Positions 532 through 39,173 of a stretch of DNA of 39,173 nt are shown piece after piece (position 1 is the first letter of the stretch; every line of letters begins with the position of its first letter). The DNA is taken from the IMG/VR virus record IMGVR_UViG_2563366802_000014; one strand, written 5' to 3'. The notes under the pieces are model-generated. The model was not told the origin of the DNA, did not search any database, and worked only from the letters and a program-made list of their open reading frames with translations. Both the position numbers and the translations under genes were made by a program. Origin of the DNA: a virus (Duplodnaviria; Heunggongvirae; Uroviricota; Caudoviricetes).

Positions 532-1071
532 ATGAAGAAAGTTTTTCTTTGCGCCATCTTAGCCTCCTTAAGCTATCCGGCTATCGCCTCATCATTGCAG
601 GATCAACTCTCTGCTGTCGCAGAAGCGGAACAGCAAGGTAAAAATGAAGAGCAAAGGCAGCATGACGAATGGGTCGCGGAGCGCAACAGGGAAATCCAGC
701 AAGAGAAGCAACGTCGCGCAAATGCCCAGGCCGCCGCTAACAAAAGAGCGGCAACGGCAGCGGCAAATAAGAAAGCTCGTCAGGATAAACTGGACGCCGA
801 AGCCTCTGCGGACAAAAAACGCGATCAAAGTTATGAAGATGAGCTACGCAGCTTAGAGATTCAGAAACAAAAACTGGCGCTGGCGAAAGAAGAAGCCCGC
901 GTTAAGCGAGAAAACGAATTTATCGATCAGGAACTGAAGCACAAAGCTGCGCAAACCGATGTGGTGCAATCTGAAGCTGACGCCAACAGAAATATGACTG
1001 AAGGCGGTCGCGATCTGATGAAAAGCGTGGGCAAAGCAGAAGAGAACAAATCGGACAGCTGGTTTAATTAA
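532..1071 (+). CDS. Host secreted coiled-coil protein (possibly YfgI-like)
   Basis: ORF from track; signal peptide (AIASS); highly charged Q/E/K/R-rich coiled-coil-like body; RBS AGGAGG about 8 nt upstream; identity with YfgI is from memory and unverified. Confidence 0.65.
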   Translation: MKKVFLCAILASLSYPAIASSLQDQLSAVAEAEQQGKNEEQRQHDEWVAERNREIQQEKQRRANAQAAANKRAATAAANKKARQDKLDAEASADKKRDQSYEDELRSLEIQKQKLALAKEEARVKRENEFIDQELKHKAAQTDVVQSEADANRNMTEGGRDLMKSVGKAEENKSDSWFN

Positions 1072-1110
1072 TCGATGTTAGTAACTTCAATCCTATAATT
1101 CTTGAAGATA

Positions 1111-1143
1111 AAAAACCCTCTGTAGTAACAGAGGGTTTTGTTC
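1111..1143. terminator. Rho-independent terminator, apparently bidirectional, at host-prophage boundary
   Basis: Stem CCCTCTG / CAGAGGG (1116-1122 / 1129-1135) with 6-nt loop, A-run upstream and T-run downstream. Confidence 0.6.
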
Positions 1144-1288
1144 ATTCATAGTGCAGGGTCAAATCATTCCCACTCAATTATTTACGGATACCATAACCAA
1201 TTGAGTGATAACACTTTTCCAAATCTCAATTTTCCTCGTACCGTTTTATATACCGTCACAGGAAATCAGTACCATGAAAAATGCTATG

Positions 1289-1771
1289 CTATCTGGTCAG
1301 GGTGTCATACTGTTTTTCGCAGACTCTTCCGGCTGCGGCTGCCCGGTCAGCATACTCTGCCAGTTGTCTGTTTCTCTCGAGAGATTTGCTGAGCACGTCG
1401 GCAAGCAAAACTCCGGTGTCTGCGGCTGACGTCCCAGCGCCGACAATGGCGTTATACTGCCTGAGCTGCTCACGGATGGCAAAGAGTTGTTGCTGCAACC
1501 TGCCAGCGCGAGCGGCAGCATCAAGAGCATCATTGCGCGCCTGGTCGATCCTCTGCTGAGCTTCACGTTCATTGGTCGCTTTCTCCTGTTCGTAGTGCTG
1601 ACGAACTCTCTCATCTTCAGCTTTGCGGTCTTCCTTCGCCTGCGCATACCCGGCATCGTACTGGCGACTGCCGTGTATATTCCAGGCAACCACTCCGACG
1701 ATGAACAGAGCAGCAAGCATCAACACAATAAGCATCTGTTTCCAATATGCTTTTACGAATGCCCAGATCAT
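1289..1771 (-). CDS. Spanin inner-membrane subunit (Rz-like i-spanin)
   Basis: N-terminal transmembrane helix (LIVLMLAALFIVGVVAW) then charged coiled-coil body; directly follows endolysin with ATGA start/stop overlap; contains a nested lipoprotein ORF. Confidence 0.75.
   Translation of the reverse strand: MIWAFVKAYWKQMLIVLMLAALFIVGVVAWNIHGSRQYDAGYAQAKEDRKAEDERVRQHYEQEKATNEREAQQRIDQARNDALDAAARAGRLQQQLFAIREQLRQYNAIVGAGTSAADTGVLLADVLSKSLERNRQLAEYADRAAAAGRVCEKQYDTLTR
1297..1533 (-). CDS. Spanin outer-membrane subunit (Rz1-like o-spanin), nested in the i-spanin gene in another frame
   Basis: Internal Met start in the 1297..1716 ORF gives MMLLMLPLALAGC with lipobox LAGC followed by a Pro-rich short body; nested architecture typical of Rz/Rz1. 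Confidence 0.6.
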   Translation of the reverse strand: MMLLMLPLALAGCSNNSLPSVSSSGSITPLSALGRQPQTPEFCLPTCSANLSRETDNWQSMLTGQPQPEESAKNSMTP

Positions 1772-2397
1772 ATAGCCAGCACCTTACTGGCAGTGACGTA
1801 CCGCGCGCGCCGGTCGTCGATGCCGTTCCGGCCACCATTGATAATCAGAGTTACACGTGCAATATCGCCGGTATACTTCATGCATCCTTTGCTGGCAAAG
1901 AACCACGCCGCGCTACGAGCCGCGTATTCGTCCTGCGCCAGCAGTTCAGGACTCTCCAGCAGGTCAACCTTAAGACCGTTTCCACAGTCACGATAGTTAT
2001 TCAAACCGGTAATCTGGATAAGTCCGCGACCACGGTAATTCCAGCCATCACCAGAGGCATTGTTACCCATGCGTTTGCTGTACACCAGATTTGCGATCGC
2101 GCGCTGGCGCTCAAGTGGCAATGGTGGCTCACCAGCACGGCGGCCCAGTGCGTTAGCCTGTCCCTGGGTGAGACGCCCAGCCCGAACGAAGTTAGCCAGT
2201 CCGGTGACGCTGTAGTTGAAATTTTCCTGCAACCGGTTGAAGCCACCAGACTCATGCCCGACCTGAGCAATAAACATTGCCTGATCTTCGGGTTTGCTGA
2301 TACCAAACTCTTTCATCGCAGAAGTTATATGCGAGAACCAGCGAGCGGCCAGCGCCTCGCTAATACCAGCAGCTCGCTGGAATTGTTTAATCTCCAT
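1768..2397 (-). CDS. Endolysin, glycoside hydrolase family 19 (chitinase-like lysozyme)
   Basis: Motifs QVGHESGGF and NYRGRGLIQITG typical of GH19 phage endolysins; start reassigned to internal ATG at 2397 (MEIKQF) with RBS GAGGT upstream; the track ORF extends to 2628. Confidence 0.85.
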   Translation of the reverse strand: MEIKQFQRAAGISEALAARWFSHITSAMKEFGISKPEDQAMFIAQVGHESGGFNRLQENFNYSVTGLANFVRAGRLTQGQANALGRRAGEPPLPLERQRAIANLVYSKRMGNNASGDGWNYRGRGLIQITGLNNYRDCGNGLKVDLLESPELLAQDEYAARSAAWFFASKGCMKYTGDIARVTLIINGGRNGIDDRRARYVTASKVLAI

Positions 2398-2695
2398 GTT
2401 TAGACCTCGATATTTTGAAAATATGAACAACGTTACCGCGTGTTTTAATAACCGCGGCAAGCATGACAGCGTTGATAATGACCTCAGATAAATCCACAGC
2501 CATTGGCGTGCGTAACCAGATTGCATAGACGACACGAACAGGAATACTTGCCGCAGCAACAATAAGGAAATAAGCAAGCCACCCTCCCCATCTTCGATGT
2601 TGAGAGCCGTTACGCCGGAATGTGACAACGCGAATTGCTATGCCAGTACAAATAACTGCATTGGTGATAAGCAAAAAAAACTCATGCGTTACCAT
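2387..2695 (-). CDS. Small membrane protein, holin or antiholin candidate
   Basis: 102 aa with 2-3 predicted hydrophobic helices; immediately upstream of and overlapping the endolysin start. Confidence 0.5.
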   Translation of the reverse strand: MVTHEFFLLITNAVICTGIAIRVVTFRRNGSQHRRWGGWLAYFLIVAAASIPVRVVYAIWLRTPMAVDLSEVIINAVMLAAVIKTRGNVVHIFKISRSKHGD

Positions 2696-3086
2696 CGTCT
2701 TTTCTCCCCGGAATTAACTCGCGTGGATTATCGGAACGGTGATAGAGCCAGATGCCAATACGCACGGCGACAATTGCTGACACGAATGCGCCTGCAGAAA
2801 AAACAATCCCTTTTTCAAAAGAGTCCTGCGTGATGGTAGGGATCAGGCTGGCTATGCCGATAAGAATTGATGCTGCTGGTTTGTAAAAGAGAAGGCCGCA
2901 AAGAAAGCTGATCATCGACAGGAGCACCCGGCGACGGATGGGGTACTCTACTGCAGAGGTAACAAAAATTACCGCCCCAGCCAAAGCCCCTAAAGCAACC
3001 TCCGGAGGGACACCTGCAATAACCGCAGCAAGAGAACTAACACTAAGCCACTGATTTGAAGTTTCATTGGTTAGTTGGAATGACAT
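2682..3086 (-). CDS. Membrane protein, putative holin
   Basis: 134 aa with about 4 hydrophobic segments and charged C-terminus; first gene of the lysis cassette by position. Confidence 0.5.
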   Translation of the reverse strand: MSFQLTNETSNQWLSVSSLAAVIAGVPPEVALGALAGAVIFVTSAVEYPIRRRVLLSMISFLCGLLFYKPAASILIGIASLIPTITQDSFEKGIVFSAGAFVSAIVAVRIGIWLYHRSDNPRELIPGRKDDGNA

Positions 3087-3158
3087 AACGAAACCCGTTT
3101 ATTTGCAAACACCCTGCTTCAGGAAAAGTATACCGCGCAACAACACACCATTTACGGT

Positions 3159-5621
3159 TCAATTCCCTGTTAATTGCAAAACTTGCTCTTCCAGCTTTTT
3201 AACCCTGCGTCTCATCATCGCAGATTCCAGAATCAGAGCCTCTTCATAACGGATACCGTAACATTCACCAGCCTCGACGGCTTCGCGTACCAGAACCTTT
3301 GTCTGTATAAGTGGGTAAACTCCTGCAGAATGCTCTTCTTCCGTCACATCCCTGTATTCTGCCGGGGTCTCATTCCACTTGTCATAACAGATAAATGCCA
3401 GTCGTGACACATCTATGCCTTCATTCTGAAATACACTGATAACATGCTGCGCAACTGCACCAAAGTGCCATCTTGCTCCGTCTTTACCTTTCACTTCGAT
3501 CCTGTCAAGGTACTGGTATGAAACCCATTCCACTCTTTCCCATGCGTCCAGTATTTTCTCATCAATAACCTCTGGAGCAGTCTTGAAACGCGCATCGGAC
3601 AGCACCGTAAACGCTGACTGGGTAAATCCCCCCGACCATGCACGACCAGCCAACCCAAGAGAATAAGTATTCGTTGTCGATGGTGTCATGGCTGAATCAG
3701 AAAACTGTATATATTCTGAATTTCCAGTAGATATTCGAATATTTCCATTTATTAGCGACATAGTGCCTTTAGTATTATCACTATTGAATAATTTCAATTG
3801 CGAACTTATACCGCCTCCCACAGCCAGAGATACATCGCCTTCAGCAAGCATTCTGAATTTATCTGCAGAAACAAGCGTCTGGTTAGCAAGGTTAAAATAT
3901 TTAACCCACCATTCAAAACGCCCTGACATAGTCCCAACGTACTGACCAAGCGCAGGGACGTGAACAACATTGCTATTTGTAGTGCCGTCTATACTGGAAA
4001 TACCAGTCACCGCTGATGCAGAACTCAGAATATTATTTCTGTCACCCGGATGTTTAATTTCAACAAAGTTCCTGATACACCCTTCCTCGAAGGTAACCAC
4101 GCCGGAAGAACTATACATGGGGAATATTGACGCATAATTACTGCGTGCAGCATCTAAGAAACGAATGGTTGTAGATGTCTGCAGATCTCCTGATTCATTT
4201 TTCCCATCACACCCAGTCATTAGAATATTACTGGCAATATTATTATTTCCCTGAACGGTGACGCCGTGCGCCTGCTTTGCGTCCGATTCAGAGTAATCAA
4301 CCAGCACATCCGAAATCAGGTTACCAGTCCCCTTGCCAACAACTACTGCGGCGTATTTTGGGTTGTTAGCCATTACACTGCTAATGATATTATTCGTTGG
4401 GGCAGTTTCCGTCTCAGTTCCATTGTAAACAACGTGCTGACACTCTTCACCAATAACATTGCTGACAATGTTATATTTTGCTGCTGTTTTAAGTTCCACT
4501 GCACCAAACTGAGGATAATTTCTGGCTATCACACCATCAATTAGCGTATTTTGCGATGAATCAAAAAGCACACAACCTGCTTTTTTATTATTTGCGAACC
4601 CTAAATACTCTCCTCTTATATCTCTAACAATGTAACCTGACGGAATACCATTATTCGGATAAGCGATCAAGCTAAATCCTGTTCCTCGCGTATTTGTAAA
4701 TCTGATATTTTTAACCGATACATCATGGCCACCTGAAAATGACACCTGGTGTCCCTGCACACTATCATCTGATTTATTTCCCATAATTGTTAGCGTACTA
4801 AGCATGCCACCATCGGGCATGTTAAAAACCAGATGATTACCATCTCTGTCATACTGTTTTATCGTTCCCCCACCTGTTCCGTACAAGCCACAACGTGAAA
4901 GAGAAACTAAAGATGTATTGAATACCCCTTCCGGAACAAAAACACTGCTAAACGAATGTAATGATTTTGTAAAAGCATCCTTGTTATCATTTAAGATTCC
5001 ATTTTGAGCTCCAAAATCCTTAATGCTGACACCATCACGCATCTTATCCTGGAACGTTCTGTATACCGCTCCAGAACCATACTGAATAAACCAACCAAAA
5101 CCACCAATAACTCCGGCGATTGCAGCATCGACATAATTACGCATTGAGCGATTATTTACAGCGTCCTGCTCAAGTGATGGATCGGCAAGGTTAGATATTC
5201 TGTTTTGCTTTGCATCGTAATATTTTGCAAGCAAAGATGGTTTCATCAATGCACGTCTGAACCACCCAAAACATCGCTGGATCAGCATCGTCAGGTAGTC
5301 AAATGCATCCTCATGAACTTCGGGGAAAAATTTTCCCTGATTGCGAAGATCAGTCTCCTGCACCACATCAAGCACACGCTCTATCGTGATTCGCCAGCCA
5401 GCAGCAAGCGGCGACGGAAGAACCACTGCACCGCCACTATAAGTTCCCGCCCCTGTTACCGTATAACCAGCATCCAGCACTAGTTTTGTAACGTTACCGT
5501 TAAGGTCAGACACCTGAACAACCAGGTCGGATTTTTTGAAAATACGGAAGGTATACGGAAATGATGTCGTAACGCCGTTACCTGTGTATTCGTTGTGGTC
5601 AACTTCGGTTGAGACCGTCAT
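3159..5621 (-). CDS. Tailspike / tail fiber, probable polysaccharide depolymerase with C-terminal S74-type intramolecular chaperone domain
   Basis: 820 aa; N-terminal particle-binding-like segment; central Gly/Asn-rich repeats suggestive of beta-helix; C-terminal motif LSDARFKTAPE matching the S-D-x-R-x-K autoproteolytic chaperone signature; RBS GGAG upstream. Confidence 0.75.
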   Translation of the reverse strand: MTVSTEVDHNEYTGNGVTTSFPYTFRIFKKSDLVVQVSDLNGNVTKLVLDAGYTVTGAGTYSGGAVVLPSPLAAGWRITIERVLDVVQETDLRNQGKFFPEVHEDAFDYLTMLIQRCFGWFRRALMKPSLLAKYYDAKQNRISNLADPSLEQDAVNNRSMRNYVDAAIAGVIGGFGWFIQYGSGAVYRTFQDKMRDGVSIKDFGAQNGILNDNKDAFTKSLHSFSSVFVPEGVFNTSLVSLSRCGLYGTGGGTIKQYDRDGNHLVFNMPDGGMLSTLTIMGNKSDDSVQGHQVSFSGGHDVSVKNIRFTNTRGTGFSLIAYPNNGIPSGYIVRDIRGEYLGFANNKKAGCVLFDSSQNTLIDGVIARNYPQFGAVELKTAAKYNIVSNVIGEECQHVVYNGTETETAPTNNIISSVMANNPKYAAVVVGKGTGNLISDVLVDYSESDAKQAHGVTVQGNNNIASNILMTGCDGKNESGDLQTSTTIRFLDAARSNYASIFPMYSSSGVVTFEEGCIRNFVEIKHPGDRNNILSSASAVTGISSIDGTTNSNVVHVPALGQYVGTMSGRFEWWVKYFNLANQTLVSADKFRMLAEGDVSLAVGGGISSQLKLFNSDNTKGTMSLINGNIRISTGNSEYIQFSDSAMTPSTTNTYSLGLAGRAWSGGFTQSAFTVLSDARFKTAPEVIDEKILDAWERVEWVSYQYLDRIEVKGKDGARWHFGAVAQHVISVFQNEGIDVSRLAFICYDKWNETPAEYRDVTEEEHSAGVYPLIQTKVLVREAVEAGECYGIRYEEALILESAMMRRRVKKLEEQVLQLTGN

Positions 5622-33286: not shown

Positions 33287-33871
33287 ATGAAAAGTATCCA
33301 GGACGTCCGCAGGCAAAATCTCAACGACTTGATCGACCGTGAATTCAATGGTGTTCAGACGCGGATGGCAGAAAAACTTGGAACTCAGGCAAATCTGGTA
33401 AACCGCTGGGCTCTTGGCAAGAAGGTTATCGGCGACCAGGTTGCGCGAAAAATTGAAGCTGCCGCCAATAAACCCCGTAACTGGCTTGATATCGATCGCT
33501 CGCTTTCTCAGGAAGGTTTTCAGCCTGTCGGCCCAAGCGATATTGGTCAGCTGGCAGCTCACAACCTGGAACGCTGGATGAGTGAAAGCCGCGACCTTTC
33601 AACTCAGGGAAAACTTCACCGCGCATCCGGCGTCGCCCAGGTGACAATAAGCCGCCTGTTAAACAATGAGGTCAGCGTTTCCATTTCCACCCTGGAGAAT
33701 GTTGCATCTGCATTCGGGCGTCACGGATATGAACTACTGATTCATCCGCATGACCCTGCAACTATCAACTATGACCGCTCGCGCTACGCATTGTTACCTG
33801 AAACAGAGAAGGCAAAGATCGAAAGTTACATTGAATTTGTCATCAACCAGAACGAAAAAAACAAACAATAA
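33287..33871 (+). CDS. Prophage repressor candidate, tandem-HTH protein without recognisable autocleavage domain
   Basis: N-terminal HTH (QTRMAEKLGTQANLVNRWALGKK) and a second HTH-like segment (ASGVAQVTISRLLNNEVSVSISTLENVASAFG); no Ala-Gly / Ser-Lys peptidase signature seen; divergent from Cro-like gene. Confidence 0.6.
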   Translation: MKSIQDVRRQNLNDLIDREFNGVQTRMAEKLGTQANLVNRWALGKKVIGDQVARKIEAAANKPRNWLDIDRSLSQEGFQPVGPSDIGQLAAHNLERWMSESRDLSTQGKLHRASGVAQVTISRLLNNEVSVSISTLENVASAFGRHGYELLIHPHDPATINYDRSRYALLPETEKAKIESYIEFVINQNEKNKQ

Positions 33872-33891: not shown

Positions 33892-33916
33892 AAGCCGCCT
33901 TCTGGCGGCTTTTTTA
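33892..33916 (+). terminator. Rho-independent terminator after the repressor gene
   Basis: Stem AAGCCGCC / GGCGGCTT with loop TTCT followed by a T-run. Confidence 0.7.
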
Positions 33917-33928
33917 TTGCCTATTTGA

Positions 33929-34005
33929 TTACCTAACGGGTAATTTTTTTAACTCATATCTATTGACATCAAACCAGATACGCATAATTATTACCTCAAC
34001 GGTAA
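33929..34005 (+). promoter_or_regulatory. Early-left promoter (PL-like) flanked by two perfect operator-like sites
   Basis: TTACCtaacgGGTAA (33929-33943), TTGACA at 33963-33968, AT-rich -10 region around 33983-33991, TTACCtcaacGGTAA (33991-34005). Confidence 0.6.
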
Positions 34006-34024
34006 CAGACCGAGGTAACAAGTT

Positions 34025-34177
34025 ATGCAGTGGAAAATCATCAACGGTTGGTACTGCGTTACTGCATGCGGATTCATGAGCTGGAAGTTCCGCACCTTAC
34101 AGGAAGGCATTAAGTGGGCTTTCGTCAGCAAAGAAGCTCGCGATGTGGCCAACGATAACGAGATATGGGAGGGCTGA
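34025..34177 (+). CDS. Small ORF (50 aa), first gene of the early-left operon, tentative
   Basis: Hand-translated; RBS GAGGT 9 nt upstream of ATG 34025; below the track cutoff. Confidence 0.3.
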   Translation: MQWKIINGWYCVTACGFMSWKFRTLQEGIKWAFVSKEARDVANDNEIWEG

Positions 34178-34179
34178 TA

Positions 34180-34479
34180 ATGAACGTTAATCAGCAGAAA
34201 AATCTTCAAAAAATCATGCTGGCATTCGACAAGGACTACCGCCTGTCAGAACAGCTATATGACCGACAAGTTGAACTGATTGAGAGTATCCGGCTTCATC
34301 AACTGGCATCAACTTTCGACGTTGTAACAGTTAAAGGCGTTCGCCAGGAAGTACTGGAGGCCGCTAAAGACAGTCCAGAGTTCGAAGAACTGATGGATTC
34401 CTACCGGCGCGAGGCAATGGCAATTATCGCCCGCTGGGATCTGGCTGATCAGCTTGATGGGCAGAGGGACGCGGCATGA
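34180..34479 (+). CDS. Hypothetical early protein (99 aa)
   Basis: ATG 34180 preceded by RBS GGGAGGG; the track ORF starts at 34165. Confidence 0.5.
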   Translation: MNVNQQKNLQKIMLAFDKDYRLSEQLYDRQVELIESIRLHQLASTFDVVTVKGVRQEVLEAAKDSPEFEELMDSYRREAMAIIARWDLADQLDGQRDAA

Positions 34480-34682
34480 AACCAACACTCCTCTCATTGC
34501 TGCGAGGTGGAAAACACAGCATCCGAGATATGGCAAAGATTCTTGGTATCTCAAGATCGAAGGTTTCTTGGTTCATCGCTGAGCTTGAACGTCGCAAATG
34601 GGTAGAGGTAACCAGGAGCGCAATATATTTCCACGATGGAACCAGATCCAACAAGCAGAACGAATACAAGGTTAAGTTATGA
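34476..34682 (+). CDS. Small winged-helix / HTH DNA-binding protein (68 aa)
   Basis: HTH-like segment SIRDMAKILGISRSKVSWFIAELERRKWV; translationally coupled on both sides. Confidence 0.5.
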   Translation: MKPTLLSLLRGGKHSIRDMAKILGISRSKVSWFIAELERRKWVEVTRSAIYFHDGTRSNKQNEYKVKL

Positions 34683-35500
34683 ATACTGGCATCTATTTCG
34701 ACATCAGCAATGAGGACTACCACGCCGGTGACGGCGTGAGTAAGTCGCAACTAGACATGGTTGCCAAGAATCCGGCGCTTCTTAAATGGGTTCAGGCAGC
34801 ACCAGAAGACGAAGAGAAAAAGTCTGCACTGGATATGGGAACCGCATTGCACTGTCTGCTTCTGGAGCCTGGAGAGTTCGACAAACGCTTCATTGTTTCA
34901 CCGAAATTCGATCGTCGGACGAAACAAGGTAAAGCTGACGAAGAGGCATTTCTTCGTGATGTGGCGGATATGGGGATTACGGTACTTGATGCCGAGCAGT
35001 GGCGGAAACTGGAGCTGATGCGTGATAGCGCAATGGCTCACCCGGCGGCACGCTGGATGCTGGAAGCACCTGGTTACTGCGAAGCATCAATGTACTGGAA
35101 CGATGAAGATACTGGTGAGTTGTGCCGCATTCGTCCAGACAAATGGCTGAACGAGCACAACGTGATCGTCGACGTGAAAAAGGTTGCAGATATGGACCGT
35201 TTTGCACGCCACATCGAGGAATTCCGCTACCACGTGCAGGACGCAATGTACCGCGAAGGCGCAATGAGGGTTACTGGTCAGCCGCATGGTTTTTTCTTTC
35301 TTGCCGTGAGCGAAAGCATTGATTGTGGTCGGTATCCGGTACGCGTGTTCGAGCTGGATGCGCCGGATGTCGATGCCGGGCACGCTCTGTTCCGCCGGGA
35401 TCTGAATACCTATCACGAATGCCGCATCAATGATGAATGGGGCGGCGTGGAAATTATTAAACGCCCTGACTGGGCACGTAAACAGGATATGTACGTATGA
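34679..35500 (+). CDS. Recombination exonuclease, RecE C-terminal-domain-like (PD-(D/E)XK)
   Basis: Motifs GIYFDISNEDYHAG, YHVQDAMY and DCGRYPV match my recollection of the RecE nuclease domain. Confidence 0.7.
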   Translation: MNTGIYFDISNEDYHAGDGVSKSQLDMVAKNPALLKWVQAAPEDEEKKSALDMGTALHCLLLEPGEFDKRFIVSPKFDRRTKQGKADEEAFLRDVADMGITVLDAEQWRKLELMRDSAMAHPAARWMLEAPGYCEASMYWNDEDTGELCRIRPDKWLNEHNVIVDVKKVADMDRFARHIEEFRYHVQDAMYREGAMRVTGQPHGFFFLAVSESIDCGRYPVRVFELDAPDVDAGHALFRRDLNTYHECRINDEWGGVEIIKRPDWARKQDMYV

Positions 35501-36378
35501 GCAATGATATCGCAATCACATCACAACCAGGCGCAACTGTAGGTACTGCTGCGGCAATCTTCAGCCCGGAGGGCATGAATCAACTGGTGCGTTTCGCGGA
35601 GTTGATGTCACAAAGCAAAGCGACTGTACCGAAACATCTTGAAGGCAAACCTGCCGATTGTCTGGCGGTGACCATGCAGGCGGCACAGTGGGGAATGAAC
35701 CCTTTCGCCGTGGCGCAGAAAACGCATGTGGTAAACGGAACGTTAGGCTACGAAGCACAGTTGGTAAATGCGGTCGTATCCTCTTCCAGCCTGCTAGCGA
35801 CACGCCTGAATTATCGCTGGAGCGGTGACTGGTCGAATGTTAACGGCAAAACAGATAAATCACCGAATCTGACGGTAACTGTGTCAGCAGTTCTTAAAGG
35901 AGAAGCAGAACCCCGTGAGCTTACCATCAGTATGGCGCAAGCCGGAGTGCGTAACTCTCCATTGTGGGAACAGGATCCGCGCCAGCAACTTGCCTATCTT
36001 TGCACGAAACGATGGGCTCGCCTGCACGCTCCTGATGTACTTCTTGGTGTTTACACCCCTGACGAATTACAGGAAACGGCACCGCGCGTTGAGCGAGACA
36101 TTACTCCGCAAACAACTACTGCTGCGGGAATGAACAGTCTGATCAACGCTAAACCAGTGAAAAAGCCTGATGAGCAAACGCGTAAAGCGGATAGCCGTGA
36201 TCCAGAAGAAATGCTGATGGCCTTTACCAGCGCAGCGATGAATTACAGCACTGTCTCCGAACTGGATAAGGCTTACAAATACATTGCACAAAAACTTTCA
36301 GATGATGACGAACTGCTGGCAAAAGCCACCGACGTTTACAGCGTTCGTCGGGAAGAATTAAACGAAACATCTATGTAA
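35497..36378 (+). CDS. Single-strand annealing protein, Red-beta (Bet)-like
   Basis: By-eye similarity to lambda Bet (GMNPF, PLWEQDPRQQLAYLCTKRWARL, ERDITP); coupled to the exonuclease gene. Confidence 0.65.
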   Translation: MSNDIAITSQPGATVGTAAAIFSPEGMNQLVRFAELMSQSKATVPKHLEGKPADCLAVTMQAAQWGMNPFAVAQKTHVVNGTLGYEAQLVNAVVSSSSLLATRLNYRWSGDWSNVNGKTDKSPNLTVTVSAVLKGEAEPRELTISMAQAGVRNSPLWEQDPRQQLAYLCTKRWARLHAPDVLLGVYTPDELQETAPRVERDITPQTTTAAGMNSLINAKPVKKPDEQTRKADSRDPEEMLMAFTSAAMNYSTVSELDKAYKYIAQKLSDDDELLAKATDVYSVRREELNETSM

Positions 36379-36427
36379 CCACCACCGCGGCGCCACGCGC
36401 GCCGCACTGCAACCAAGAGAGGTATTT

Positions 36428-36676
36428 ATGAAAGGTGCATTAGGTAAGAAGGAACTCCTGGCGGTGGTGCCACTGTCATGGAGCACTATCGACCGTATGG
36501 AGCGCGCAGGTGAATTTCCTAAACGCTGGTATATCACTGACAAACGCTGCGCATGGAACCGTGACGAAGTTGAGCGTTGGCTTGATGAACGTCAGGCAGC
36601 AAGCCCGGCAGAGTTCCAGGGTAAAAAACCTCCTGTTCAGCAACGTGTATATCGTCCCGTGAGCAACGCTGCATGA
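36428..36676 (+). CDS. AlpA-like DNA-binding protein, possible excisionase or regulator
   Basis: Segment LSWSTIDRMERAGEFPKRWYITDKRCAWNRDEVERWL resembles the AlpA/Xis-type HTH family. Confidence 0.6.
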   Translation: MKGALGKKELLAVVPLSWSTIDRMERAGEFPKRWYITDKRCAWNRDEVERWLDERQAASPAEFQGKKPPVQQRVYRPVSNAA

Positions 36677-36833
36677 GTGCGCTGCTAAGGCACTGGATCA
36701 AATGGTCAGGATGGTACTTATTCCTGGCCTCTGTTTCAGCATGGCTTTATCTGCTGGCATTAATTTTCAGAGAGGGTTGGATTAAGTGAGAAAGTTAAGC
36801 CGACTTGAAAAATATCACATGAATAAGGTTTCA

Positions 36834-37085
36834 ATGCGCAGTCCGTCAAAGATTGTCGCCGTTACTCCTGCGGCGATAGAGATCGAAAAACGCGCGATTG
36901 AAAGAGAGAAAAAAGGGCAGTTCCGCATTGCCGCTCACCTTTGGCTTCAGTGTATGGATGTTGCTTCTGGTGATGTTGAGCGTGCAAGGATCGCGGTTCG
37001 CAGGGACCAATGTATCACAAAAGGTAACGGCCTTCGCCGTGGAGACTATAGCGGTATAGGATGTTGCGGGGTGGTTTGTGACTAA
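36834..37085 (+). CDS. PerC-like small transcriptional regulator, tentative
   Basis: Start set at ATG 36834 with RBS AAGGT (track start is GTG 36786); segment FRIAAHLWLQCMDVASGDVERARIAVRRDQC resembles PerC-type proteins from memory. Confidence 0.4.
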   Translation: MRSPSKIVAVTPAAIEIEKRAIEREKKGQFRIAAHLWLQCMDVASGDVERARIAVRRDQCITKGNGLRRGDYSGIGCCGVVCD

Positions 37086-37728
37086 GAAATACACACTAAT
37101 CTATGCAGATCCACCCTGGGTATACCGGGACAAAGCCGCAGATGGTAATCGCGGTGCCAGTTTTAAATATCCGGTTATGAGTGTGATGGATATCTGCCGC
37201 CTTCCTGTGTGGGATTTGGCCGATGAAAACTGTCTGTTGGCCATGTGGTGGGTGCCAACACAACCACTCGAAGCGCTAAAAGTTGTTGAAGCCTGGGGAT
37301 TCCGTCTGATGACCATGAAGGGCTTCACGTGGATAAAATGTGGTAGTCGACAACCAGATAAACTGGTTATGGGTATGGGGCACATGACTCGCGCCAATAG
37401 TGAAGATTGCCTGTTTGCGGTAAAGGGAAAACTACCTACGCGCATTAATGCAGGGATCGTTCAGTCATTTACCGCACCGCGGCTTGAGCATTCAAGAAAA
37501 CCAGATATCGTTCGTGAAAAACTTGTGCAATTGTTAGGCGATGTTTCTCGCATTGAACTGTTCGCCAGACAGACGTCTCATGGCTTCGATGTTTGGGGTA
37601 ATCAGTGCGAAGACCCGGCAGTGCAACTACACCCTGGATACGCGTTGGATATTGCCGGATTAACAAATGCATTCAGCAATGCTCCGCTGTCACCAACAGA
37701 CAACCAGGGGCGGGAGCGTGCAGCATGA
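37078..37728 (+). CDS. MT-A70 family DNA N6-adenine methyltransferase
   Basis: Hallmark DPPW motif in IYADPPWVY near the N-terminus; GTG start overlapping the previous stop. Confidence 0.8.
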   Translation: MTKKYTLIYADPPWVYRDKAADGNRGASFKYPVMSVMDICRLPVWDLADENCLLAMWWVPTQPLEALKVVEAWGFRLMTMKGFTWIKCGSRQPDKLVMGMGHMTRANSEDCLFAVKGKLPTRINAGIVQSFTAPRLEHSRKPDIVREKLVQLLGDVSRIELFARQTSHGFDVWGNQCEDPAVQLHPGYALDIAGLTNAFSNAPLSPTDNQGRERAA

Positions 37729-37919
37729 ACAGGGCATCACCAGCAGATTTAAGGAAATGCCTTGAAACTGCAAACATGCTTGCACACAGCGGGATCAGGT
37801 TTGTTCCAATTCCCGCTGTCACTGATGCTGAATTTGCAACGCTGTCAGCAATATTCGCAGACAAAATTGAATCACTGGCAGCAGAAGCCGAGATGGAAGA
37901 AAATCAGCAGAACTATTAA
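37725..37919 (+). CDS. Small hypothetical protein (64 aa)
   Basis: ATG 37725 overlaps the methyltransferase stop (ATGA); the longer track ORF from 37605 is probably not the real start. Confidence 0.45.
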   Translation: MNRASPADLRKCLETANMLAHSGIRFVPIPAVTDAEFATLSAIFADKIESLAAEAEMEENQQNY

Positions 37920-37922
37920 ACG

Positions 37923-39173
37923 TTATTCTCCCGCCATCCACTTCTCAAACTTCGACGGGGAGAACGGAATCAGATCCGTATGCTCCCCGTCAATCCAGGA
38001 ATCAATCATATCTGCCCACTGCTGCAACATGTAGGCGCGCTGTCTGGCGTATTCCGCTTTGTTATATACGGCGCGCACACCTTTCTGCTCATGTGCCAGA
38101 GCCTTTTCAATCCAGTCTGAAGGATAACCAGCCTCATGCAACAACGTACTGGCTGTACGGCGCATATCGTGTACGGTGAAGTCCTGAATATGCTCACCAT
38201 CTTCATTTATTATTTTCACCGTTCTGTCGATCAGTGAGTTCAACGCGGCATTAGATAATGGCTTCCGGAAATTGTAACGACCAGGAACCAGGTATTCACT
38301 TCCACCAGCGCACATCTGCAACCCAACCAATATATCCTGTGCTTGTTTAGGCAGGTAAATAACGTGCGCCCGGCTTCCCTTCATGCGGTCTGAAGGAATT
38401 GTCCATGTCCATTTTTTAAAATCTATTTCATCCCACGTTGCATTGGTGAATTCGCCTTTACGAACCATAGTGATAAGCACCAGCTTTAAAGCCATTTTCA
38501 TAGTGCCCATAGCACCAATGGCATCCAGCGTGCGGAAGAACAGACCAATTTCTTCTGGTGTCAGTGTTCGCTCTCGTGGTTTAAATATGGCGATAGACGA
38601 AGGTTTAATGTCAGCCGCAGGATTAAACAAACCATGACCACGGTCATTGGCATGACGGTATACGCTGCTGATGATCTCCCTGGCCTGCACTGCTGTTGCC
38701 AGGCCGCCGCGTTCGACAATCCGGTCACACAAATCACGAACCATCGATGTGGTAATTTCAGTCATCATTTTGTTGCCAAGAACCGGAAGTATGTCACGGT
38801 CGATCACCGCCTGCTTCATTGCGCGGGTACTGTCAGCCAGGATGACATGTTTCATATAACTGTCGGTATGTACCGCAAACGTCTCGGCACCACGAATCTT
38901 TTTGATACCGTCACGTTTAGCCGCAGCCGGTGACTGGCCTGCTTTAAGCAGCTTCTTTGCAGCAATCAGTTCTTCTCGCGCTTCTGCCAGGCTGATACCG
39001 TCACGCCCATACTGCCCGATTACCAGTGTTTCGCGGCGACCGTTGATACGGTAGTCATAGCGAAACGAGACCGTGCCTGACGTAAGCACAGCTACATACA
39101 GCCCGTCACGATCGGAGACCTTGTACAGTTTGTCCTGCGGCTTGAGGTTTTTTAATTTTGTATCGGTAAGCAC
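37923..39173 (-). CDS. int: Tyrosine integrase (P4-type); N-terminus at or just beyond the window edge
   Basis: C-terminal catalytic region HDMRRTASTLLHEAGYPSDWIEKALAH and a downstream Tyr in VYNKAEY; N-terminal arm-binding-like segment; ORF runs to the window end with GTG at the edge, so the true start may lie outside. Confidence 0.85.
   Translation of the reverse strand: MLTDTKLKNLKPQDKLYKVSDRDGLYVAVLTSGTVSFRYDYRINGRRETLVIGQYGRDGISLAEAREELIAAKKLLKAGQSPAAAKRDGIKKIRGAETFAVHTDSYMKHVILADSTRAMKQAVIDRDILPVLGNKMMTEITTSMVRDLCDRIVERGGLATAVQAREIISSVYRHANDRGHGLFNPAADIKPSSIAIFKPRERTLTPEEIGLFFRTLDAIGAMGTMKMALKLVLITMVRKGEFTNATWDEIDFKKWTWTIPSDRMKGSRAHVIYLPKQAQDILVGLQMCAGGSEYLVPGRYNFRKPLSNAALNSLIDRTVKIINEDGEHIQDFTVHDMRRTASTLLHEAGYPSDWIEKALAHEQKGVRAVYNKAEYARQRAYMLQQWADMIDSWIDGEHTDLIPFSPSKFEKWMAGE

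Follow-up and report, generated by a model that had tools for sequence, protein, structure and literature searches.

Is a phage recombination module that places an annealase resembling lambda Bet beside a RecE-type exonuclease an unusual, mixed pairing? This question is raised by two adjacent genes in IMG/VR record IMGVR_UViG_2563366802_000014, a tailed-phage sequence of 39,173 nt. We refer to the whole of this stretch as the window, and all coordinates are in window numbering. A first-pass annotation had proposed a recombination module at positions 34679–36378, and two open reading frames (ORFs) lie exactly there, both on the + strand: a nuclease ORF at 34679..35500 (273 aa) and an annealase ORF at 35497..36378 (293 aa). 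We conclude that, very probably, they constitute a two-component, RecA-independent single-strand-annealing module of an epsilon15/phiV10-type temperate phage (a Uetakevirus-like E. coli prophage), in which a RecE-type exonuclease is paired with an annealase from a third, Bet-proximal clade within the RecT/Red-beta superfamily. The gene structure, the family assignments, the conserved catalytic residues, the fold and the conservation of the pairing directly support this conclusion.

The nuclease

The first gene encodes a compact, 31.6 kDa protein that is predicted to be a PD-(D/E)XK 5ʹ-3ʹ exonuclease of the RecE type and corresponds to Rac RecE's C-terminal nuclease domain. The protein is 48% identical, without gaps, to residues 594–861 of Rac RecE (BLASTP, E=4e-89), and its residues 12–268 align with residues 5–261 of the RecE nuclease-domain structure, 3H4R (phmmer, E=1.9e-77). 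Its score on the Pfam model PF12684 (DUF3799) is 79.2 bits, where the cut-off is 26, and the match extends over profile positions 1–220 of 233; Rac RecE, used as a control, scores 99.2 bits over its residues 614–849. The protein also falls in PHROG 412, “exonuclease VIII” (E=1e-125). The catalytic residues are predicted to be H58 (34850–34852), D154 (35138–35140), D165 (35171–35173) and K167 (35177–35179), all encoded on the + strand. The last three are invariant across 10 aligned RecE-type nucleases, and H58 is kept in seven of the 10, including Rac RecE.

The first-pass annotation had recognized a RecE-type nuclease domain here, as distinct from a lambda-Exo-type enzyme, and both parts of that assignment hold. 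The nuclease has no Pfam or NCBIfam match at E≤1 to the YqaJ/lambda Exo models (PF09588 and TIGR03033), and comparison with lambda Exo reveals no similarity (BLASTP, E=0.11). The lambda Exo control scores 106 bits on PF09588. The nuclease also fails the equivalog model for full-length exonuclease VIII, NF007259 (305.9 bits against a cut-off of 1269), matching only profile positions 606–873, and it has no match to the N-terminal ~590 residues of RecE (Pfam PF06630, Exonuc_VIII). Hence, it is a domain-only, compact form. Its identity as a stand-alone RecE C-terminal nuclease domain, and not a lambda-Exo-type nuclease, is fully confirmed at the level of sequence. RecE from about residue 588 onward is sufficient for RecET recombineering, and we take the 273-aa nuclease to be comparable to the laboratory-truncated RecE fragment that begins at about this position. 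De Paepe et al. employed a RecE fragment from about residue 588 (PMC3945230).

Family membership of the annealase

The second gene encodes a 32.1 kDa protein that belongs to the RecT/Red-beta superfamily and is predicted to be a single-strand annealing protein. If database names are taken at face value, the annealase is a true RecT and the locus is a canonical RecE/RecT pair. PGAP names the protein “RecT family recombinase”, NCBI and PHROG also name it RecT, it scores 110.3 bits on the Pfam model PF03837, “RecT”, against a cut-off of 24, and the order of nuclease then annealase is that of Rac. We nonetheless consider a true RecT very unlikely. Lambda Bet itself scores 115.6 bits on PF03837 (Rac RecT scores 188.9 bits), so the “RecT” label of this model is superfamily-wide and does not discriminate between RecT and Bet. 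Classification of the annealase as RecT had been named beforehand as an argument against its being Bet-like; formally, Pfam and PGAP do classify it so, yet this is uninformative for the same reason.

More specific models also argue against a true RecT. The curated models for RecT proper, TIGR00616 and NF007351, do not match the annealase at E≤1, and neither does the curated Bet model, TIGR01913. Relatives of the annealase from Gifsy-2, Rac-SA53, and Pseudomonas, Gordonia and Vibrio phages are likewise missed by the RecT and Bet models. These models do recognize their own references (169.5 bits for lambda Bet on TIGR01913, and 413.6 bits for Rac RecT on TIGR00616), and TIGR00616 also matches Bordetella, phi346 and Erwinia proteins. 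Furthermore, direct comparison of the annealase with Rac RecT gives a BLASTP E-value of only 0.56. There is no match at E≤0.01 to PHROG 252, which represents Bet; the annealase falls in PHROG 561 (E=1.7e-145).

The family around the annealase is large. A plain homologue search returned only E. coli copies that are 99–100% identical, and representatives of clusters at 50% identity were used for the family profile. Among 1.84 billion such representatives, 6,939 clusters matched at E≤1e-3, of which 773 reached E≤1e-30. A hidden Markov model (HMM) of 142 cluster members gives 6.5 bits for lambda Bet and −1.7 bits for Rac RecT. Family members in annotated phages include proteins of epsilon15-like phages, the “RecT” of Gifsy-1/2 (47% identical to the annealase over the N-terminal domain), proteins of HK225 and mEp237, and the “recT” product of Rac-SA53. 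Sodalis phiSG1 and Vibrio and Burkholderia phages encode further members, and there are weaker matches in Gordonia and Pseudomonas phages. Judged by these sequence comparisons, the annealase belongs to a third clade of the superfamily that is Bet-proximal, and appears to be neither a Bet ortholog nor RecT proper.

Orthologs of the annealase have been labelled “enterohemolysin 1”, “putative enterohemolysin” or “RecT family enterohemolysin”, and the obsolete “enterohemolysin” annotation persists in JQ011317.1, JQ691610.1, MK416013.1 and MK422450.1. These labels are what favours a reading of the gene as an enterohemolysin or haemolysis factor. We give that reading almost no credence: the predicted fold is that of a Rad52-like annealase, the setting is a recombination operon, and the structural model has no evident secretion or pore-forming features. 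Moreover, a passage in PMC8767327, citing Oscarsson et al. 2002, describes the phage-associated Ehly determinants as RecT recombinases that are not haemolysins per se.

The labels also point to a name for the clade. As summarized in a passage of PMC8093625, Iyer et al. 2002 distinguished an EHAP1-like subgroup of the superfamily in E. coli and Salmonella. The annealase clade (PHROG 561) is probably this “EHAP1/enterohemolysin-associated” family, a match made through labels and the summarized descriptions and not through the EHAP1 sequence itself. Whereas that summary describes EHAP1 for E. coli and Salmonella, the annealase family is far larger and broader, with members in Vibrio, Burkholderia and Sodalis phages and weaker matches in Gordonia phages.

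Relationship of the annealase to Bet and RecT

To which of the two classical families is this third clade closer? Bet and RecT reference sets were drawn from diverse annotated phages using tblastn; searches of viral contigs returned only identical copies. The clean Bet set consisted of the proteins from lambda, Ralstonia, Pasteurella, Vibrio 1.100.O and Serratia Eta. The reference profiles are small, at 5 and 7 sequences, and the scores that follow should be read accordingly. Using hhalign, the annealase family matched the clean Bet profile with a probability of 89.5–94.9% and E-values of 2e-6 to 4.5e-8, over 141 columns that span most of the N-terminal domain. The match to the RecT profile had a probability of 1.6–3.9% and E-values of 0.01–0.03. 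As controls, the annealase family was aligned with an Erf protein (E=0.011), reversed Bet (E=0.053) and reversed RecT (E=0.31). The RecT match is no better than these controls; hence, the similarity to RecT is at noise level. For comparison, Bet and RecT matched each other with a probability of 28% (E=6e-4).

The Bet signal was also seen with subsets of the references: the probability was 78% (E=1.9e-5) using only the three Bet proteins that are partnered with YqaJ nucleases, and 43% (E=2.4e-4) using only the two that are partnered with RecE-type nucleases. Cross-scoring with HMMs gave a similar picture. The Bet HMM scores above 10 bits for 34 of the 142 family members, with a maximum of 30.1 bits and 10.8 bits for the window annealase, whereas the RecT HMM scores above 10 bits for none of the 142, and never above 3.2 bits. 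The secondary PHROG matches of the annealase (4171, 2449 and 10056) are all shared with lambda Bet, which matches PHROG 10056 at 7e-63, and none is shared with Rac RecT; lambda Bet in turn weakly matches phrog_561. In a Foldseek comparison, lambda Red-beta (7UJL) was the only meaningful PDB match to the annealase model. Neither Red-beta nor LiRecT was among the PDB-sequence matches obtained with phmmer and with hmmsearch using the family profile, and fold comparison alone found Red-beta.

Profile–profile alignment, HMM cross-scores, PHROG cross-matches and Foldseek all place the annealase clade nearer to Bet than to RecT. This is proximity, not membership. The first-pass annotation had described the annealase as resembling lambda Bet rather than RecT, which is right insofar as the protein is nearer to Bet and has no match to TIGR00616; it goes too far insofar as TIGR01913 and PHROG 252 do not match, and the C-terminal domain (CTD) is unlike that of Bet. 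The signal shared with Bet comes from the latter half of the N-terminal domain and the first part of the linker, and includes a W..P helix and the motifs ARL, G[IV]Y..DE and ERDITP. The N-terminal half of the annealase matches neither the Bet family nor the RecT family.

One comparison had suggested that Bet and RecT resemble each other more closely than either resembles the annealase family. This was an artefact of including the proteins from phi346 and Erwinia phage Midgardsormr38 in the Bet set, and the clean set reversed the ranking. Both of these “Bet” sequences pass TIGR00616, and therefore inflated the Bet–RecT score. In phi346 (2360–3310 of the locus) and Midgardsormr38 (2228–3160), and also in the Stx2a phages H54-58 and H97-99, it is the N-terminal part of the annealase that passes TIGR00616, and the C-terminal part matches residues ~135–260 of lambda Bet with 31–42% identity. 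A gene annotated “exonuclease” lies 3ʹ of each. These annealases look like hybrids of a RecT N-terminal domain and a Bet CTD, judging from the matched regions, and they would be better suited to testing if a CTD travels with the type of exonuclease.

Domain organization of the annealase

The annealase has three parts, all encoded on the + strand. The first (aa 17–192; 35545..36072) is an N-terminal alpha/beta core that is predicted to be a Rad52-like DNA-binding and oligomerization domain; the structural model has the Rad52-like annealase core fold. The second (aa 193–235; 36073..36201) is a low-confidence, probably disordered linker, with a predicted local distance difference test score (pLDDT) of 47–68 over residues ~190–230. 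The linker starts with the ERDITP motif, which aligns with residues 190–195 of lambda Bet in both BLASTP and hhalign comparisons. The third (aa 236–292; 36202..36372) is a C-terminal three-helix bundle, with an AlphaFold2 pLDDT of ~97 in the full model and 87 when the domain is modelled alone.

The C-terminal bundle is a portable module that also occurs on Erf-family annealases and is T4 UvsW.1-like. A profile of 24 family CTDs matches T4 UvsW.1 (PDB 2JPN) with an E-value of 3.7e-5 over 50 of 63 positions. Using tblastn, the module (aa 224–293; 36166–36375) is 45% identical to the C-termini of the Erf proteins of Salmonella phages Oslo and S107. Phage Oslo carries Arf and Abc2 but no RecE nuclease. 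Since the Oslo Erf has the same CTD without RecE, the module is not bound to a RecE partner. The idea that CTD type tracks the RecE partner was ruled out by this RecE-less Erf, and by the observation that BLASTP matches to the Gifsy-2 and HK225 annealases stop before the CTD. In all, the module is found on three different recombination proteins. The fold search with the CTD alone is non-specific for such a small bundle, with 2JPN ranked 29th (E=7); this entry appeared both in that search and in the Foldseek comparison above, and was non-significant in each. A previous publication (PMC13490951) describes some RecT C-terminal extensions as similar to UvsW.1 at the level of fold.

A Red-beta-type CTD was considered for the annealase and was ruled out by sequence profiles. 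The CTD profile matches Bet only at E=0.19, the hhalign probability of a match to the CTDs of the Bet family is 4.3%, and no Red-beta CTD entry is among the top 50 Foldseek matches for the CTD model. The annealase CTD and the Red-beta CTD have a three-helix fold class in common, but this is non-specific. No similarity was found between the annealase CTD and the C-terminal region of RecT. As cited in passages of PMC11611040 and PMC13490951, the Red-beta CTD binds SSB as well as Exo. By analogy, the CTD of the window annealase would most likely serve as an adaptor to host SSB.

Conservation of the pairing

If the pairing of a RecE-type nuclease with this annealase were unusual, other loci should differ. 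However, among 80 IMG/VR loci with relatives of the annealase (50–100% identity), all 80 have a RecE-type nuclease of ~273 aa directly 5ʹ and on the same strand, and no lambda-Exo-like ORF lies within 4 kb in any of them. With homology E-values as extreme as those above and the pair kept in every one of these loci, the association is not due to chance. More distant members of the annealase clade adjoin full-length RecE genes in Gifsy-2, Rac-SA53 and HK225, and in Gordonia phage TillyBobJoe a clade member lies beside a DUF3799 nuclease. The Gifsy-1/2 pairs, described as recET orthologs, are genetically functional: they suppress recombination defects once activated or derepressed (PMC3121763). 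These genetics, together with the conserved and translationally coupled arrangement of the two genes, lend indirect support to a putative physical interaction and dsDNA recombination activity of the window proteins. The suggestion that the pairing is an unusual mixture has therefore not survived, and the framing as a “mixed pair” rests on an over-simple idea of canonical pairs.

Other loci point the same way. Serratia phage Eta and Vibrio phage 1.100.O have Bet relatives near compact DUF3799 nucleases; for RecT proper, the partner is a DUF3799 nuclease in Bordetella and Mycobacterium phages and a YqaJ nuclease in a Bacillus phage; and lambda, like phages of Pasteurella and Ralstonia, combines Bet with a YqaJ nuclease. 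Hence, all four combinations of Bet or RecT with YqaJ-type or RecE-type nucleases exist. Shuffling of nuclease and annealase families is known from earlier surveys (PMC8093625; PMC2896510). There has also been re-assortment at the level of subtypes: the nucleases of Gifsy-2, HK225 and Rac-SA53 are a divergent subtype, with 25–32% fragmentary identity to the K-12-RecE-type nuclease of the window, so the same annealase clade occurs with two nuclease subtypes.

An alternative explanation for the module is that it is a genuine chimera, in which a lambda Bet ortholog recently recombined beside a RecE nuclease to create an unusual, non-cognate pair. The Bet-leaning features of the annealase (ERDITP, the second half of the N-terminal domain, the top Foldseek match, and a domain layout like that of Red-beta) would fit such an event, and the contrast between a K-12-RecE-type nuclease (48% identity) in the window and the divergent nucleases that accompany the same annealase clade in Gifsy, HK225 and Rac-SA53 indicates that some re-assortment has occurred. 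Nonetheless, we consider a recent chimera extremely unlikely. A Bet ortholog would be expected to match TIGR01913 and PHROG 252, and the annealase matches neither; the family HMM gives Bet no more than the 6.5 bits noted above; the N-terminal half and the CTD lack similarity to Bet; and the pairing is ancient and stable, being kept in all 80 loci down to 50% annealase identity. Furthermore, true pairs of Bet-like and RecE-type proteins occur separately, in Eta and Vibrio 1.100.O. We favour instead a long-standing pair of a RecE-type exonuclease and a third-clade annealase.

Two of the loci that we compared have unusual structures. In Rac-SA53 (recE-recT, 828–5077 of the locus), RecE shares 65% identity with its K-12 counterpart across residues 1–760; after residue 760 it has a C-terminal nuclease part of the Gifsy/HK225 type, 51% identical to that of HK225, and the gene that follows encodes an EHAP1-clade annealase in place of classical RecT. 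From the alignments, cassettes seem to have been swapped at a breakpoint within recE, such that Rac prophages would carry one of two alternative cassettes, each consisting of a nuclease end plus an annealase. In Vibrio phage 1.259.O (697–2916 of the locus), where the annealase is a clade member with 44% identity, the preceding gene encodes a 739-aa protein in which no Pfam domain was found, and no recognizable RecE or YqaJ nuclease occupies that place. The 739-aa protein may be a partner nuclease that is either divergent or novel.

A model for the function of the module

We propose the following mechanism for the RecE-type exonuclease and its third-clade annealase. Upon prophage induction, the early operon 3ʹ of the repressor gene would express the coupled genes. 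The nuclease would presumably form a ring oligomer, as RecE does; it would engage the ends of double-stranded DNA and resect the 5ʹ strand, leaving a 3ʹ single-stranded tail. The Rad52-like core of the annealase would then coat this tail, oligomerize, and anneal the tail to complementary single-stranded DNA, while the flexible linker and CTD would recruit a host or phage partner, of which host SSB is the most likely example. The outcome would be circularization of the genome or formation of concatemers, and RecA-independent exchange with related prophages. The scheme thus combines predicted enzymatic activities and a presumed oligomeric state with a candidate operon promoter and a putative role for the CTD.

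Gene organization and genomic context

The stop codon of the nuclease gene and the start codon of the annealase gene overlap in the sequence ATGA (junction GTATGAGC). Likewise, the stop codon of a 68-aa ORF overlaps the nuclease start codon, again as ATGA (junction GTTATGAATACT). This 68-aa ORF, orf68 (34476..34682, + strand), has a weak match to PHROG 23131 (E=4e-5), and orf104 (34165..34479, + strand), which precedes it with a further 4-nt overlap, matches PHROG 856 (E=7e-55); neither PHROG has an assigned function. Together, orf104, orf68, the nuclease gene and the annealase gene are a chain of four genes with 4-nt overlaps, an arrangement of translational coupling. The phage phiV10 has ORFs at positions equivalent to those of orf104 and orf68 (34165–34682 of the window). 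These two genes could encode accessory recombination factors or anti-RecBCD functions; a scan of the six ORFs that flank the pair gave no match to Gam-like or other nuclease inhibitors.

A cI-like repressor gene (33287..33871) lies upstream of the recombination operon. Just 3ʹ of it is a terminator-like hairpin (33892..33911, + strand), with an 8-bp stem that includes 6 GC pairs, followed by TTTTATT. The hairpin is a consensus match only, and the count of such matches in the region is not above the expectation from shuffled sequence; in phiV10, a rho-independent terminator is annotated at the equivalent position. A σ70 promoter-like site (33963..33991, + strand; TTGACA-17-AATTAT, 10 of 12 matches) is a candidate early operon promoter. 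This too is a consensus match only, with two such sites in the region against a shuffle expectation of 3.0, and hence not above background. Its location 5ʹ of the first ORF of the operon is a plausible one for a promoter. On the 3ʹ side of the pair are genes for an AlpA-like regulator, a PerC-like activator and an MT-A70-family adenine methyltransferase, followed by an integrase gene on the opposite strand. The methyltransferase gene (37078–37728; PHROG 359, E=5e-120) sits at the end of the recombination operon. The tyrosine-integrase-like ORF (37923–39173, − strand) reaches the edge of the window, and its true start may fall outside.

The surrounding DNA is 95–99% identical to that of the epsilon15/phiV10-type temperate phages TL-2011b, phiv142-3, ZX5 and phiV10. 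The region 34000–37800 is nearly identical in 568 of 5,426 complete E. coli genomes, and databases contain hundreds of entries identical to the two proteins. In phiV10 (DQ126339.2, PhiV10p37; 682–2442 of the locus examined), the nuclease and annealase are annotated as a single 586-aa “recET fusion” coding sequence. The fusion is caused by one additional A in a homopolymer run, ~20 nt 5ʹ of the nuclease stop codon (equivalent to 35470–35500 of the window): phiV10 has CGCAAAACAGG where the window and three phiV10-type IMG/VR loci have CGCAAACAGG. The additional A probably reflects either an error in sequencing or a frameshift specific to the strain. Fusion coding sequences of the phiV10 type are the reason that the PHROG 561 profile (633 positions) covers both proteins.

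Implications

The type of module described here is already known: earlier reports cover the family, the way it pairs with RecE-type nucleases, what it does genetically in Gifsy prophages, and even the UvsW.1-like C-terminal fold. The practical points concern names and lineages. The “RecT family” (PF03837) label says nothing about whether an annealase is RecT or Red-beta, since lambda Bet bears it too, and the very common “RecT” of E. coli and Salmonella prophages of the phiV10/Gifsy type belongs to a third lineage that is nearer to Bet. For recombineering, the locus offers a natural minimal pair from an E. coli phage, a 273-aa nuclease and a 293-aa annealase, that can be compared with Red and RecET.

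What does the re-assortment of partners mean for specificity? Specificity between exonuclease and annealase has classically been shown for RecE/RecT versus Exo/Bet. The compact K-12-type RecE nuclease domain (34–48% mutual identity) is found beside RecT proper (Rac of K-12, a Bordetella phage), Bet-like annealases (Eta, 1.100.O) and an EHAP1-type annealase (the window). Such free re-assortment of nuclease and annealase families makes “canonical pairs” a textbook simplification. We tentatively suggest, as one possibility that is itself doubtful, that pair specificity is not a family-level, co-evolved trait of a dedicated CTD, but is either dispensable or re-evolved rapidly on small surfaces, the CTD then being an adaptor to the host (SSB). 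If so, and if all such pairs are functional, the epsilon15-like pair would be a convenient natural test case for exonuclease–annealase specificity.

Comparison with known systems

The window module resembles Rac RecE/RecT in the DUF3799 nuclease domain with its PD-(D/E)XK residues, in the order of nuclease then annealase, in the overlap of stop and start codons, and in the presumed mechanism of 5ʹ-3ʹ resection followed by annealing. Rac RecE, however, is an 866-aa protein, and the 273-aa window nuclease is without its N-terminal region of ~590 residues. Similarly, the window annealase is not RecT proper, and differs from Rac RecT in having a long linker and a three-helix CTD.

Several features are common to the annealase and lambda Bet: the Rad52-like core, the latter half of the N-terminal domain, ERDITP, and the layout of an N-terminal domain, a linker and a three-helix CTD. 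It is unlike Bet in failing TIGR01913 and PHROG 252, in having a CTD that is unrelated in sequence, and in having a partner that is not a YqaJ-type nuclease. The module as a whole differs from lambda Red in that the nuclease is of the RecE type and the gene order is the reverse of that in lambda, where bet precedes exo.

The annealases of Gifsy-1/2, HK225 and Rac-SA53 belong to the same clade as that of the window (45–47% identity over the N-terminal domain, E about 1e-68) and are encoded directly 3ʹ of a RecE-type gene. BLASTP matches to the Gifsy-2, HK225 and Rac-SA53 annealases stop at residue ~198–204 of the window protein, before the CTD, although tblastn extends the Rac-SA53 match to residue 289. 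In contrast to the compact window nuclease, the nucleases of Gifsy, HK225 and Rac-SA53 are full-length, at 961–1129 aa.

Serratia phage Eta and Vibrio phage 1.100.O are similar to the window in having a compact DUF3799 nuclease (41% and 34% identity, respectively) 5ʹ of a superfamily annealase on the same strand, but in both phages a small or medium-sized ORF lies between the two genes. Their annealases, unlike that of the window, are real Bet relatives, with 35% identity to the lambda protein (E about 1e-35). On TIGR01913 they score 50.8 bits (Eta) and 47.3 bits (1.100.O), with E-values of about 1e-13, although these scores fall short of the curated cut-off. Similarity of these annealases to the window annealase is marginal (E-values of 6e-5 to 0.01). 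It is Eta and Vibrio 1.100.O that, judged by homology, carry the true pairs of a RecE-type nuclease and a Bet-type annealase.

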